A DNA stretch of 64,000 nt from a virus, in IMG/VR virus record IMGVR_UViG_3300045988_166195, positions 1-64,000 of that record, one strand, 5' to 3'. Both the position numbers and the translations under genes were made by a program. The notes beneath the pieces were generated by a model. That model was given only the letters and a program-made list of their open reading frames with translations, had not been told where the DNA came from and ran no database searches. Shown here piece after piece: positions 33,521 through 39,438 of this stretch (the stretch's first letter is position 1; the number at the start of each line of letters is the position of its first letter).

Positions 33521-34315
33521 CTATTGAAGCTCTTCTTTCAAACCACCATCGTGGATTTCCCCATTGTGGTAGTTAATATCCCAATGGTTAGCGGTATTGA
33601 ACACTGTAATGTGCTCGGAAATGGACTGGTCGCACGATTCCATGTCGATGGTGACGGTGCGAGGGATTAGTTCGCTGTTGATGTAGTTGGGTGTCACAGC
33701 ATAGTAGAGCGGACATTGTGCGTTGGCTGGGTTATCCAGATAGTCACGCGCCTTGGTCTCTGCGTACGCCATACCGCCAGTGTGGTTGTTATCGATGCCG
33801 ACGTTCTGAGTACGTGTTCCGGTGACAAGGTTTTCTTTCACGGGATCTCCACCGAGCGAATCAGCGATCATGTGTGAGCGGTTCCAGAACCATCCGTAAT
33901 AGGGTTTGTCGTCTCTGCCATAGGTGGCACTATAGATGGTGGCCTTTCGGTTCTTTTTGGGCCATCCGGTAGGGTTGATATTGATGTCTTGCCTGCCGCG
34001 CTCTTTGGCTTGGAGCCTACTCTCGGTGGTGAGTACGCCATACGCGCACGTCGGGCGACTCAGCTCGTCGAGAGGGCAGTACGCGATGGTACCATCAGAG
34101 GATGCGTCAGTCTGGTACGGATGCTGCGCCGGGCCTCCGATGCTGTAGTAATTGCTGGTGACACCGGATTGATTGGGCTGGGGGAGGTTATTAAAGAATC
34201 CAAATAAATACCCTATCAGCGTAATAGTCAGTACCATTGCGACGATAAGGAAGATGGTTTTTCTAATCAATTCATCAGGTGAAATGTTTGGTTTAGCAAA
34301 ATAATGATTGAGCAT
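33521..34315 (-). CDS. Membrane-anchored extracytoplasmic nuclease-like protein, paralog 1 (His-Me finger / non-specific endonuclease-like)
   Basis: N-terminal TM helix. 'GWFWNRSHMIADSLGG' resembles the DRGH-type ββα-Me motif with a downstream Asn. Conserved Cys pairs. Confidence 0.55.
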   Translation of the reverse strand: MLNHYFAKPNISPDELIRKTIFLIVAMVLTITLIGYLFGFFNNLPQPNQSGVTSNYYSIGGPAQHPYQTDASSDGTIAYCPLDELSRPTCAYGVLTTESRLQAKERGRQDININPTGWPKKNRKATIYSATYGRDDKPYYGWFWNRSHMIADSLGGDPVKENLVTGTRTQNVGIDNNHTGGMAYAETKARDYLDNPANAQCPLYYAVTPNYINSELIPRTVTIDMESCDQSISEHITVFNTANHWDINYHNGEIHDGGLKEELQ

Positions 34316-34329
34316 GTTTACGTCCTTTA

Positions 34330-35121
34330 CTATCTGCGAGTTTCGCCCGTGTGGTAATTGATGTCGTAGGTGGTTTCAACGTTGTAGATTGTCATTCGCT
34401 TAGAGAGCGACTGATCACACGCTTCAATATCAACTGTCAGGCTTCGTGGAATAAGCTCATCTGCCTCGTAATTAGCCGTCACCGCGTAGTACAATGGACA
34501 CTGCGCGTTGTACTGGTCATCAAGATACTGTGCGGCAAGATACTCGGGGTATTGAAGGCCGTTCTTGAAATAGCTATTACCCTTATGCCCAGAGTTATTC
34601 AGGTGTTCGGTACCTGTGATGGTGTTATTGGGAACGAAGTCACCACCTAGTTGCGTTCCGAGCATAGGGGTCTTGACCCAGAGTGGTCCGAAGTATTCAA
34701 CATAAGTATTGGTTTCGGGCCAGCCGCTGGGGTTGAAATCAACGTCGTGACGTTGGTAATTCTTACCCTTTTCACGGTTCTCTGGAGTCAGGAGACCGTA
34801 AGCGCATGTGGGACGACCGTGATCGTCAGGATCGCAGTAGGTGATGGTGCCTTCGCTTGGCTGATACGTACGTTGTGCAGGACCGTCGAATGCGATGTAT
34901 TTCTCGGATGATGAGAGCACACCAGGGCCTGAGACGAATGGGTCAGGCTGTGTAAACTTCTTATGCAGTTCGATGCCGCTATTAACCACGAGGAAGGCAA
35001 TGAAGATTGCGCCTATGAATGCGATGATTCGAGCGACGTTTTCTGGAATTCGGATTGTGCCGAAGAGGTAAAGGTCGGTTGTGGCAGGTTCTAGGTTTCG
35101 ATGCTCTCGTTCTGGGTACAT
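34330..35121 (-). CDS. Membrane-anchored nuclease-like paralog 2 (NRSH motif replaced)
   Basis: Shares 'GPAQxxYQ...TCAYGLLT' and 'AQCPLYYAVT...ELIPR..TVDIE(S/A)CDQS' with paralog 1. The catalytic-like 'NRSH' position reads 'KTPM'. Confidence 0.5.
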   Translation of the reverse strand: MYPEREHRNLEPATTDLYLFGTIRIPENVARIIAFIGAIFIAFLVVNSGIELHKKFTQPDPFVSGPGVLSSSEKYIAFDGPAQRTYQPSEGTITYCDPDDHGRPTCAYGLLTPENREKGKNYQRHDVDFNPSGWPETNTYVEYFGPLWVKTPMLGTQLGGDFVPNNTITGTEHLNNSGHKGNSYFKNGLQYPEYLAAQYLDDQYNAQCPLYYAVTANYEADELIPRSLTVDIEACDQSLSKRMTIYNVETTYDINYHTGETRR

Positions 35122-35138
35122 GTGTTTCCTTTTCAGTT

Positions 35139-35321
35139 TTAATTCAGATGGTCTAAGAAGATTAAGCCAAGTGCAATCATTAGGAGAATGATAGCTACTG
35201 ATCCGCAGAATACGAATAGTTTCGGGATAATGAATGATCCGATGTGAATCTTCGCATTATCGGGTATTCGTGCAATGAGGGATCCATCTTCGTTCTCGAT
35301 GATTTCAATCATGGGATTCAT
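35139..35321 (-). CDS. Small membrane protein (60 aa)
   Basis: ORF track. C-terminal TM helix. Confidence 0.4.
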   Translation of the reverse strand: MNPMIEIIENEDGSLIARIPDNAKIHIGSFIIPKLFVFCGSVAIILLMIALGLIFLDHLN

Positions 35322-35345
35322 AGGTATGGGGTGTCTTTTTTCTGC

Positions 35346-35582
35346 TTAGAGGGAGATAGATGGGCACCAGCCATGGCCGCTGAGCAACCACGGCACGTCG
35401 ACACGCAGCATGTCTGCGAGCATGTCGAGATCTCCAAACGTGAGATCCAGCAGCTGACCCGTCACCGATCGAATGACGTTGTGGTCAGTGTTTGGATAGA
35501 TCTGGTCACTGCGGGAGATAACCCGATCGATGAAAGCCTTCTGAGCGCTTTCACCTGTGATGTTACGGATGTTAACAGCCAT
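35346..35582 (-). CDS. Hypothetical protein (78 aa, start MAVNIRNITGE)
   Basis: AAGGAAAG Shine-Dalgarno. Internal start of track ORF 35346..35735. Confidence 0.45.
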   Translation of the reverse strand: MAVNIRNITGESAQKAFIDRVISRSDQIYPNTDHNVIRSVTGQLLDLTFGDLDMLADMLRVDVPWLLSGHGWCPSISL

Positions 35583-37501: not shown

Positions 37502-37520
37502 GAACTACAGGGAGTAAGCA

Positions 37521-38579
37521 ATGAGCAATTTTGAGTACGATGAGCCATCGCCTGAGGTGTTCGATCCTTTGTATGCGGCTCAGAAAGAGTTGCGTGAGCG
37601 TATGAATCAGCAGCCAGCCGTTGTGTCGGCGCGCTCTGCGCGTGTTGGTAATACAGCTACGGGGGCAGCGCTGAACGCGCGTCGTCAGTCTGGTGGCGGC
37701 GCAAACGGCAGTAACAACGCCGGTAATGCTTCGCCAGCAGGTGCCTCTGGTGTGGGCTCTGCGCCGCCTGAGCCGCAACGTAATGAGCCTGATGATCTGA
37801 TCACTGAAGCTGATAGCGCTGTTGCTGATCTCGATGAAAAGACTTCATCTGTTGGGGAGACACACCGCGATGAGCCCATCGAGCACGGTGAGCCGGATAG
37901 CGATGCTCAGCAGCCTCAGCAGCAGCTCCAGCAATCAGCAGAGCGCCTGTATGAGCCAGTGCCGATGGCGTTGCGTCATCGTGACGGTAGTGAAATCCCC
38001 ACGACGATCGAGGGCGATGTTCGTTTTGCCTTTGATGGTGATTCGACAAGGCCGCGAGATTTGCCTGCTGTCATCGTGCAAGCGATTCGAGACGAGCTGA
38101 CGCGCCTGGGTGCGCCAGAGCTCGGTGCTGTTCCGACGCCAAAGACGCAGAGCAAAACGCTGTCATCGGGTTCGTTGATCACAGCGTTGGTGATGAGTGC
38201 GCTCGACATCGAGATCCCCGGTGTCGACGAGAACACTCGGCGTGCTGCTGAAGTGTTGCGCACGGGGCAGGGCCGTGTGGCGGCGATCGAGATGAAGGTG
38301 GAGCAGGTGCTGGATAACCAGCAGCGCGCTCAGAAAGACCTTGATGCGATGACGAAGCGTGCGCTCAGCGCTGAGAAACAGCTCTATGAGCTGGAGCTCA
38401 TGCTCACATGGTTGCTTGTCGACAAGACTGAGCCGCGTTTGTTCAATAACGCGACTGCGCTGTCCATCGATTTGACGAACAAGACGGTGGTTGATGCACG
38501 TGCGAAGCTTCGGGAGAAAGCCCGAGAGTTGAGCAAAGACGAGTCTGTGCGGCGAGGGAATCTGAAGATCGTGGAGTAG
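37521..38579 (+). CDS. Hypothetical protein with disordered Gly/Ala/Gln-rich N-terminal half and coiled-coil C-terminal region
   Basis: ORF track. Followed by a strong terminator. Confidence 0.5.
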   Translation: MSNFEYDEPSPEVFDPLYAAQKELRERMNQQPAVVSARSARVGNTATGAALNARRQSGGGANGSNNAGNASPAGASGVGSAPPEPQRNEPDDLITEADSAVADLDEKTSSVGETHRDEPIEHGEPDSDAQQPQQQLQQSAERLYEPVPMALRHRDGSEIPTTIEGDVRFAFDGDSTRPRDLPAVIVQAIRDELTRLGAPELGAVPTPKTQSKTLSSGSLITALVMSALDIEIPGVDENTRRAAEVLRTGQGRVAAIEMKVEQVLDNQQRAQKDLDAMTKRALSAEKQLYELELMLTWLLVDKTEPRLFNNATALSIDLTNKTVVDARAKLREKARELSKDESVRRGNLKIVE

Positions 38580-38584
38580 TATAG

Positions 38585-38620
38585 ACAACGCCCCGTAGCT
38601 TTTGCTGCGGGGCGTTGTCT
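38585..38620. terminator. Hairpin gacaacgccccgtagc/gctgcggggcgttgtc
   Basis: Perfect 16-bp inverted repeat followed by a T-rich stretch, between convergent genes. Confidence 0.6.
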
Positions 38621-38631
38621 TCCGATGGGAA

Positions 38632-39438
38632 TTAGCGCTTGATCGGGCTAAAGGATCCATTGGAGTAGTCGATCGTGTATCCGTTGGCTGTGTTGAAGAC
38701 GATGACATGCTGGGACAATGAGCGATCGCATGATTCAATGTCAATGGTGACGATTGATGGGATTGGACTATTTCCGTCGTATTTGGGTTTTGCCGCGTAG
38801 TAGAGCGGGCATTTGTCGTGAGACGGATCATCGAGATATTGCTGCGCAAGTGTTTCTACGTACGCCATACCGCCGTCATGAGCTGTGGTCGCACCGACGT
38901 TTTGGGCGAGTGTTCCAGTGATGAGGTTTTCCTTCACAGGTTTACCACCAAGCGAATCAGGGAGAAGATATGAGCGGTTCCAGAACTCGCCGTTGTTGGA
39001 GTCGATGGTGACTTTTTCGTTGTGACTGGGCCACCCAGCTGGATCGATTTCAATGGGCTGAGGGTCGCGTTCTTTGGCTTCGGCACGAGTGTGTGTCGAC
39101 AACAGTCCTACGGCGCACGTAGGGCGTGATTGGTCATCGAGAGGGCAATATCCGATGTTCCCCATGTCGTCGGCAACGTTGTGGACATCTTGCGCTGGAC
39201 CGTCGATCACGTAGTAGTTGGTGGGGGCTGGGACGGCTGTACGGTATGTCTGTTCGATGGCCGTTTTCTCGTGGAAGTGCCAGATGTGGTATCCGAAAGC
39301 TCCGGTGGTCACGATGAGAATTGTCGTGAGAATGAACGGCATGCTCTTTTCGATGAACGGTTTGATGTTTTTAAGATTGGTGATCACGAAAACTCCTTTT
39401 GGTGGTTGTGGCTGATGTGGGGCAAGATTGTGTGCCAT
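38632..39438 (-). CDS. Membrane-anchored nuclease-like paralog 3 (retains WNRSY motif)
   Basis: Shares the 'GPAQ', 'TCAVGLLS', 'EFWNRSYLLPDSLGGKPVKENLITGT' and 'DKCPLYYAAKP' blocks with 33521 and 34330. Start uncertain (MAHNLAPHQ or MPFIL). Confidence 0.5.
   Translation of the reverse strand: MAHNLAPHQPQPPKGVFVITNLKNIKPFIEKSMPFILTTILIVTTGAFGYHIWHFHEKTAIEQTYRTAVPAPTNYYVIDGPAQDVHNVADDMGNIGYCPLDDQSRPTCAVGLLSTHTRAEAKERDPQPIEIDPAGWPSHNEKVTIDSNNGEFWNRSYLLPDSLGGKPVKENLITGTLAQNVGATTAHDGGMAYVETLAQQYLDDPSHDKCPLYYAAKPKYDGNSPIPSIVTIDIESCDRSLSQHVIVFNTANGYTIDYSNGSFSPIKR

Follow-up and report, generated by a model that had tools for sequence, protein, structure and literature searches.

One predicted live surface nuclease and two conserved, predicted inactive paralogs as cargo of a conjugative plasmid family of actinobacteria

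The DNA analysed here is positions 1 to 64,000 of IMG/VR record IMGVR_UViG_3300045988_166195, part of a 121-kb Joint Genome Institute (JGI) metagenome contig; we refer to these 64,000 nucleotides (nt) as the window. It encodes three related proteins of the His-Me nuclease superfamily, which we call P1, P2 and P3 (Table 1). Our preferred reading, to which we give a probability of about 0.6, is that they represent one live nuclease of the Endonuclea_NS_2 family, P1, and two maintained dead paralogs, P2 and P3, carried as plasmid cargo. A first-pass annotation of the same DNA had described three paralogous membrane-anchored nucleases, one of them with its catalytic motif ablated. The paralogy stands, and the number of ablated copies was an undercount. 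Judged from aligned residues, P2 and P3 both lack the general-base histidine, and P1 alone keeps it.

All three open reading frames (ORFs) are present on the minus strand, and pairwise BLASTP puts their similarity far above chance, as expected of paralogs. P1 is 45% identical to P2 (E = 3e-58) and 49% identical to P3 (E = 2e-78), and P2 and P3 are 39% identical (E = 2e-43). The conserved blocks quoted in the first-pass annotation are present, and GPAQ, RPTCA(Y/V)G, CPLYYA and IP(R/S)..T(V/I)DIE(S/A)CD(Q/R)S align column for column across the three proteins. The catalytic-region motifs read WNRSHMIADSLGG in P1, WNRSYLLPDSLGG in P3 and WVKTPMLGTQLGG in P2. The P3 frame had initially been extended to 39438. 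Its most likely start is instead the GTG at 39387 (251 residues), which is preceded at 6 nt by an AAAGGAG ribosome-binding site and is the same Val at which the ortholog calls begin; the ATG at 39438 (268 residues) is less likely. P1 and P2 each have an AAAGGA-type ribosome-binding site. There is no fourth nuclease copy in the whole window.

The three proteins belong to the Endonuclea_NS_2/Sda1/EndA branch of the His-Me (ββα-metal) nucleases, whose members are Mg2+-dependent, sugar-non-specific endonucleases. The Pfam profile PF13930 (Endonuclea_NS_2) matches P1 with 49.2 bits (8e-13) and P3 with 27.4 bits (4.3e-6), and P2, at 25.8 bits (1.3e-5), falls slightly below the gathering score of 27; P1 also matched PF01223 (1.8e-7). 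Among the PDB sequences, the top phmmer match of all three is the Sda1 crystal structure 5FGW (1e-26 for P1, 5.4e-11 for P2 and 5.1e-22 for P3), followed by Spd1, S. agalactiae NucA and S. pneumoniae EndA. AlphaFold2 (AF2) models built with family alignments as input have a mean predicted local distance difference test (pLDDT) score of 90.1 for P1 and 85.6 for P2, and the P2 model has the same strand-strand-helix order as P1. Foldseek searches of the PDB with these two models returned Sda1 at 2.7e-18 for P1 and 8e-13 for P2, with probability 1.00, then NucA, EndA and Spd1, and more distantly the type VII secretion system (T7SS) toxin EsaD; no other structure scored below E = 1e-3. The DRGH-type His-Me homology proposed in the first-pass annotation is thus borne out by Pfam, by sequence matches and by predicted fold. 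The NCBIfam and PADLOC profiles gave no match for P1, P2 or P3, so that none of them is a named equivalog or part of a known defence system.

The catalytic residues can be placed by reference to Sda1 and EndA. According to PMC10818452, 5FGW is an H188G mutant of Sda1, with His188 as the general base, Asn211 chelating the metal and Arg124 on a DNA-binding loop. In EndA, His160 and Asn191 are essential, and imidazole rescues the H160A mutant (PMC3025545). In the HMMER alignment of P1 with Sda1, H148 corresponds to His188, N171 to Asn211 and E186 to the glutamate of 'YIE'. We tabulated residues over an 82-sequence alignment that includes 68 canonical relatives and 10 rows from the P2 clade. N-R-S-H, D152, N171, E186, R108 and R168 are invariant or nearly so in the canonical relatives, with the metal-binding Asn present in 68 of 68, and P1 has the complete set (N145-R146-S147-H148, D152, N171, E186, R108 and R168). 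The NRSH...DSLGG motif is intact in 115 of the 120 best P1 homologs. Three of the other five are P3 orthologs without the His; among off-motif homologs that retain it, two depart only at the glycine motif, and an internal deletion is present in one of the sequences with the His.

In P3 the changes are H148→Y, R168→L, R108→P and a Ser for the arginine of 'ELIPR'. The Tyr is conserved in P0021, P0023 and P0029 and in the related loci L002, L004 and L006, the P3 clade has Y148 with L168 in the residue table, and 'NRSYLLP' is invariant among all P3 orthologs seen. The first-pass annotation had taken 'WNRS(H/Y)...DSLGG' as kept in P1 and P3. The text of the motif is indeed in both, but the S(H/Y) position is that of the catalytic His, so P3 is predicted to be catalytically compromised as well. 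In P2 the changes are N145→V, R146→K, S147→T, H148→P, D152→T and R168→E; Pro stands opposite His188 of Sda1, and the P2-clade rows read (V/I/A/L)-K-T-P with T or P at 152. Asn is present at the metal-ligand position in all three proteins of the window. Across the two clades, the alignments indicate that the constraint on this residue has been lost too: it is Ser in the P3 orthologs of L002, L004, L006, L022 and L033, with E186 also replaced by Lys in L006, and it is Asp or deleted in P2 orthologs, the Asn loop being deleted in the shorter subclade. The His and other active-site residues were lost independently in P2 and P3. Because the general-base His is absent, P2 and P3 are homologs of the family that should not be filed as nucleases; P2 is a predicted pseudo-nuclease, and P3 is probably one. 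Two other indicators were tried and rejected. The net charge of the ectodomain, as a proxy for DNA binding, is non-discriminating, P2 and P3 being more acidic than P1 yet inside the canonical range, and a new functional site at the former finger region of P2 was discarded, conservation there being equal to that of the rest of the domain.

By the substitution patterns, P2 and P3 are intact and under purifying selection, not decaying. Between orthologs from different contigs, the ratio of nonsynonymous to synonymous divergence (dN/dS, Nei-Gojobori method, NG86) is 0.13–0.17 for P1, 0.11–0.17 for P2 and 0.17–0.27 for P3. A homolog search with P2 recovered a clade of ~30 clusters, almost all on contigs of 90–122 kb. 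The 'W-x-K-T-P…LGG' replacement is found in 19 of the 19 clusters readable by motif scan (of 30) and in 10 of 10 residue-table rows. The clade divides into two subclades that are ~50% identical to each other, both of which keep four cysteines (see below) and KTP..LGG. In a neighbour-joining bootstrap tree from Kimura distances, P1, P2 and P3 together are monophyletic (93% bootstrap), the P2 clade and the P3 clade each have 100%, and both lie on long branches inside or beside the plasmid P1 group. This placement and the long branches point to duplications inside the plasmid lineage and a later acceleration of change.

To survey the plasmid family, 57 metagenome loci were fetched with the neighbouring topoisomerase as bait, of which 28 are close relatives (≥83% identity) with the full 10-kb upstream flank. 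P1 and P2 occur together in 15 of the 28, all three copies in 3, and P1 with P3 in 1. Five loci have P1 alone (L026, L028, L030, L041, and L020, which has a 59-residue P2 remnant as well), one has a truncated P2 only (L010, the first 132 residues), and three have no nuclease gene (L016, L035, L037). Exact protein matches led to further loci, of which two hold all three copies, one holds P1 and P3, and one holds P1 and P2. Intact P2 is present in ~25 contigs and intact P3 in ~10, never without P1 among the loci surveyed. The plasmids without nucleases and the remnants in L010 and L020 show recurrent loss in this region. The census thus marks the nuclease set as accessory cargo, in which P1 can exist without either dead copy, and it would fit P2 and P3 as accessory partners as well as plain descent by tandem duplication. 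The topoisomerase is 92–97% identical between these plasmids despite the nuclease loss, and the remnant in L020 is the last 59 residues of P2. Elsewhere, the Lysinibacter genomic locus L003 has a single copy, and the Microbacterium and S. aureus plasmids have just one endonuclease gene annotated near the match. The NS_2 homologs of these other Gram-positive plasmids occupy comparable positions. The NS_2 homolog of the Microbacterium plasmid comes after genes for a single-stranded DNA-binding protein and a ribbon-helix-helix (RHH) protein and adjoins a large SNF2 gene; that of the S. aureus plasmids lies between a CHAP hydrolase and a JAB protein.

The N-terminal transmembrane (TM) helix noticed at first pass is recognisable as a hydrophobic anchor in P1 and P2. 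The 19-residue Kyte-Doolittle peak is 2.49 in P1 (residues ~20–41) and 2.52 in P2 (residues ~32–50), and AF2 predicts a long N-terminal helix (13–42 in P1, 27–57 in P2), then a ~14-residue low-confidence linker and the globular domain. On visual inspection, P1, P2 and P3 have no AXA or lipobox site; a lipobox-like 'LSAC' occurs in the homolog P0018, and an ordinary signal peptide in the homolog P0105. P1, P2 and P3 have just four cysteines each, all of them conserved (C80, C90, C201 and C228 in P1) and common to all three clades and to nearly all actinobacterial relatives; the streptococcal enzyme Sda1 has none of the four in the HMMER alignment. The first pair is lost jointly in P0153 and P0154. 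In the P1 model, C80 and C90 flank an inter-strand loop, and C201 and C228 are at the ends of an antiparallel strand pair. From the joint loss and these modelled positions we infer the pairing C80-C90 and C201-C228, and the four-Cys pattern fits two disulfides in an extracytoplasmic, oxidising compartment. Dependence on disulfides has been described as one means by which exported His-Me nucleases stay harmless before export (PMC5714182).

We propose that P1, P2 and P3 are each inserted N-in/C-out via an uncleaved signal-anchor, and that the linker would hold the globular domain against the outside of the cytoplasmic membrane. The two disulfides would form outside and the enzyme would be harmless until export; with such gating an immunity protein is presumably unneeded. 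P1 would then act in the manner of EndA and Sda1, as a Mg2+-dependent non-specific DNA/RNA endonuclease at the membrane surface. With so short a tether, P1 would probably act on nucleic acids that reach the membrane and not on distant neutrophil extracellular traps (NETs) or DNA of the matrix. What the plasmid would most likely gain is the destruction of incoming or ambient DNA, blocking transformation by competing DNA, as may be argued by analogy from the Campylobacter CJIE DNases, which abolish natural transformation and degrade biofilm extracellular DNA (eDNA) (PMC4372405). Nucleotide scavenging and eDNA remodelling could be secondary benefits, and P1 may also degrade NETs or biofilm. P2 would be translationally close-coupled to P1. 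P2 and P3 would most likely be non-catalytic, membrane-tethered partners that modulate or scaffold P1, or that bind a ligand without cleaving it; they would not be essential inhibitors.

Several points weigh against this reading. The activity of P1 and the inactivity of P2 and P3 are deduced from residues alone, and the anchoring with the domain outside the membrane from hydropathy and the logic of the cysteines. The N-terminal peak of P3 is just 1.48 (MPFILTTILIVTTGAFGYHIW, Thr-rich), which is borderline, and the charges flanking the P2 anchor are ambiguous, a single Arg preceding it and two Lys following it. Conservation along the strand of P2 that once held the active site is not unusual (0.46, against 0.42 in the remaining domain). 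EndA is a monomer, so a heteromer of P1 with P2 or P3 would be without family precedent. Tyr replaces His in PacI (PMC5714182), so P3 might keep an altered chemistry. Finally, the host is probably Actinomyces, an assignment made from a single metagenome-assembled genome (MAG) bin.

The toxin/immunity-like pair suggested in the first-pass annotation would have a dangerous P1 bound and inhibited by the inactive P2 and/or P3, and the producer protected in this way. P2 and P1 share an operon in which P2 precedes P1 by 14 nt (7 nt in L007), which would mean that they are made together. The dead copies are under purifying selection and never occur intact without P1, and wild-type EndA is too toxic to be cloned in E. 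coli (PMC3025545). An obligate pair is nonetheless made unlikely by the 5 of 28 loci with P1 and neither intact partner, four of them with no trace of P2 or P3 and L020 with just the remnant. The single copy in L003 points the same way, as do the Microbacterium and S. aureus plasmids, where one endonuclease is annotated close to the match, and the four conserved cysteines offer an alternative route to self-protection. NuiA and EsaG are inhibitors unrelated to their nucleases. The inhibitors known in this superfamily are unrelated proteins, such as Nin for B. subtilis NucA (PMC3025545). We therefore hold the pair to be disfavoured and distinctly improbable. It is unlikely, if less strained, that P2 and P3 are surface receptors for nucleic acids or other ligands, which have lost cleavage and kept binding and which capture DNA for P1 or for the transfer apparatus with no need of contact with P1. 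Smad MH1 and the nuclease-like domain of ENPP are known examples of inactive His-Me domains that retain DNA or substrate binding (PMC5714182). The fold and the disulfide cysteines are kept in P2 and P3, and P2 retains R108 and the ELIPR arginine and gains an invariant Lys in 'KTP'. P3 is the difficulty, being without three family-conserved arginines (R108 is variable, R168→L and IPR→IPS) and having an ectodomain net charge of -14.

That P3, and possibly P2, are enzymes with altered chemistry, for instance with the P3 Tyr serving, as in PacI, as nucleophile or general base, or with a changed substrate, we regard as very unlikely. The invariant 'NRSYLLP' of the P3 orthologs and the mostly kept E186 and DSLGG would suit such an enzyme, as would the Tyr found in place of His in PacI; the PacI Tyr, however, is on a different loop and not at the His position (PMC5714182). 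Moreover, the Asn is Ser in at least five P3 orthologs, E186 is Lys in L006 and R168 is lost, and P2 has Pro at the His position and, in its short subclade, no Asn loop. Most improbable of all is that P2 and P3 are decaying, functionless duplicates on the way to becoming pseudogenes. They are dispensable, in that many related plasmids are without P3 and several without P2, and L010 and L020 hold remnants. Against this, the ORFs are intact in the ~25 (P2) and ~10 (P3) contigs, with dN/dS of 0.11–0.27 in the same range as P1, the ~50% identical P2 subclades have both kept the four cysteines and KTP..LGG, and P2 and P3 have good ribosome-binding sites. A bolder proposal, which we consider a long shot, is that P2 and P3 are the founders of two bacterial pseudo-nuclease families with a new extracytoplasmic job on the plasmid, or that the P3 Tyr represents novel His-Me chemistry. 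If true, the job might be that of an obligate regulatory subunit switching P1 between DNA destruction and tolerance of an incoming plasmid, or that of a surface or entry-exclusion determinant recognised in mating; the invariant Tyr of P3 would then give covalent or otherwise novel His-Me chemistry.

The reading of one live nuclease with two maintained dead paralogs bears on a wider question. Plasmids, prophages and integrative and conjugative elements (ICEs) repeatedly carry exported non-specific nucleases, and how the element benefits is poorly defined. The present plasmid family is a natural series with P1 alone, P1 and P2, P1 and P3, all three, or none. It lends itself to asking how a surface nuclease serves a conjugative plasmid of Gram-positive bacteria and also what a bacterium gains from dead copies, presumably disulfide-bonded, beside a live enzyme. 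In the databases, proteins of the P2 and P3 types are annotated as 'DNA/RNA non-specific endonuclease' or left unlabelled, yet they are predicted to be non-cutting.

Table 1. Nuclease-family genes and neighbouring features of the window (aa, amino acids).
Feature	Coordinates	Strand	Description
P1	33521..34315	(-)	264 aa; Endonuclea_NS_2 nuclease, predicted membrane-anchored; sole copy predicted active
P2	34330..35121	(-)	263 aa; tandem paralog, 14 nt upstream of P1; predicted pseudo-nuclease
P3	38632..39387	(-)	251 aa; dispersed paralog, monocistronic; probably pseudo-nuclease
tm76	33275..33505	(-)	76 aa, two hydrophobic segments; follows P1 by 15 nt, same operon
tm60	35139..35321	(-)	60 aa, one C-terminal hydrophobic segment
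SLOG ORF	35912-36607	(-)	YspA/cpYpsA-related SLOG (YAcAr) domain
SocA/Panacea ORF	36480-37073		
RHH-like/352-aa pair	37067-38579	(+)	small protein with RHH-like N-terminus, then 352-aa protein
719-aa ORF	39533-41692	(+)	N-terminal DUF7487, C-terminal methyltransferase-like
708-, 1102- and 482-aa ORFs	45081-50512, 51254-52702	(+)	between topoisomerase and cell-wall hydrolase

The window encodes a MobL relaxase, a topoisomerase IA, a Phage_lysozyme2 cell-wall hydrolase, an Alp-type actin (partition), a sortase, an AgI/II-like adhesin and an Lsr2 protein. These genes point to an actinobacterial conjugative plasmid or ICE, in agreement with the conjugative element recognised at first pass, and on gene content we assign the element to a conjugative plasmid family of ~100–120 kb of an actinobacterium. 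A MAG labelled 'uncultured Actinomyces sp.' has a 92%-identical locus on a contig of 88.7 kb, and the closest relaxases on sequenced plasmids are those of Streptomyces, Gordonia and Rhodococcus, at 38–47% identity. A megablast of 33000–40000 against the PLSDB plasmids and INPHARED phages gave no match, which excludes a sequenced reference plasmid or phage as the identity of the element. No competence families appeared in a Pfam scan of 25 window proteins, which did not take in every ORF.

P2, P1 and tm76 are part of a long operon on the minus strand, which consists of small unknown genes and also holds the SocA/Panacea and YspA-SLOG proteins. P3 is single and divergent from the 719-aa gene. 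A scan of 32500–40000 for consensus promoters and terminators found fewer sites than in shuffled sequence and was set aside as uninformative. The small TM ORFs reported on either side of the P2-P1 pair are real. The tm76 gene is also found at 10811–11038 in L002, 10778–11008 in L004 and 10799–10918 in L006. Its protein is 100% identical in L002 and L004, with synonymous divergence (dS) of ~0.02, and the adjacent P1 is 73–92% identical, with dS of 0.27–1.3; a near-identical tm76 beside a divergent P1 suggests a recently exchanged or swept block of DNA. In L006 an in-frame deletion of 37 codons leaves 39 residues of tm76, and L007 has an unrelated 59-residue TM ORF instead. Residues 1–14 of tm60 are the N-terminus of the longer form of P2 in L002 and L004. 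In DNA alignment with these loci, there is a ~170-nt insertion in the 5' end of P2 (window 35121–35321). It splits the ancestral P2 of 271–274 residues into tm60 and the 263-residue P2, which has its own ribosome-binding site and ATG, and it encodes a second anchor-like segment resembling the P2 TM region. Both forms are in the database, the 263-residue form as P0121 and P0125 and a form of 271–273 residues as P0122-P0124.

The SLOG ORF corresponds to a gene of 157–185 residues in related contigs; in this region (35876–36607) the JGI gene call has a 143-residue ORF on the opposite strand instead. It overlaps the SocA/Panacea ORF by ~128 nt, so the start codons need re-annotation. The 719-aa protein matches the PADLOC profile 'mad2' (2.4e-10), has counterparts of 965 residues in L006 and 747 in L007 and, lying beside the topoisomerase, may be an orphan or anti-restriction methylase. 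The small protein at 37067–38579 has an N-terminus that looks RHH-like by eye (RLNVRMPASVRDKVDYWAEKEGLSANEFI); the 352-aa protein after it has no family match and has a Gln/Ser-rich low-complexity centre. The pair is in the same position in all related plasmids and is convergent with P3. The 708-, 1102- and 482-aa ORFs have no Pfam match at E≤0.01; transfer ATPases and a coupling protein are expected there, and the region may be a divergent conjugation apparatus. In L007, positions 1–909 hold an IS605 OrfB/Cas12f-like TnpB gene beside the conserved block of a 294-aa protein and the topoisomerase.

Relative to known systems, P1 is new but otherwise unremarkable within a much-studied family. P2 and P3 are a modest novelty as clades of predicted stand-alone, anchored, disulfide-bearing pseudo-nucleases beside a live copy on a bacterial plasmid; none is described in the literature searched, and nothing directly relevant was found there on plasmid NS_2 nucleases, pseudo-nuclease paralogs or such an Actinomyces plasmid. 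The best match in sequence and fold is Sda1 (streptodornase D) of S. pyogenes (PDB 5FGW, 5FGU), at 31% identity. It is prophage-encoded, so both proteins are on mobile elements, and the core motifs '(N/D)RSH(M/L)IADSLGG' and 'TGTRTQNVG' are near-identical. Sda1 is soluble and secreted and is without the four cysteines, whereas the proteins here are predicted to be anchored, bear the cysteines and come as one live and two dead copies. EndA of S. pneumoniae (PDB 3OWV) resembles P1 in its fold (Foldseek 5e-10) and has the N-terminal anchor and surface-exposed DRGH domain that are predicted for P1. It differs in being the single-copy product of a chromosomal competence gene for DNA uptake, ~20% identical to P1, which is plasmid cargo. 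EsaD, the S. aureus T7SS toxin (PDB 8GUN), and polymorphic toxins of the NS_2 type have the same fold at a distance (Foldseek 8e-5). These are C-terminal domains on delivery modules with unrelated immunity proteins, whereas P1, P2 and P3 have a predicted TM anchor only and no delivery domain. The best functional analogy for P1 would be the DNases of the C. jejuni elements CJIE1, CJIE2 and CJIE4 (Dns, CJE0566 and CJE1441), which are exported, borne on mobile elements and sometimes several per genome. Their host is Gram-negative, they are periplasmic or secreted, and all copies are described as transformation-inhibiting DNases. For P2 and P3 the conceptual precedent is Smad MH1 and the nuclease-like domain of ENPP1-3/autotaxin, in which the His is lost and the fold is kept for binding or structure. 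Those domains are eukaryotic and fused in larger proteins, whereas P2 and P3 are stand-alone bacterial paralogs beside a live copy.

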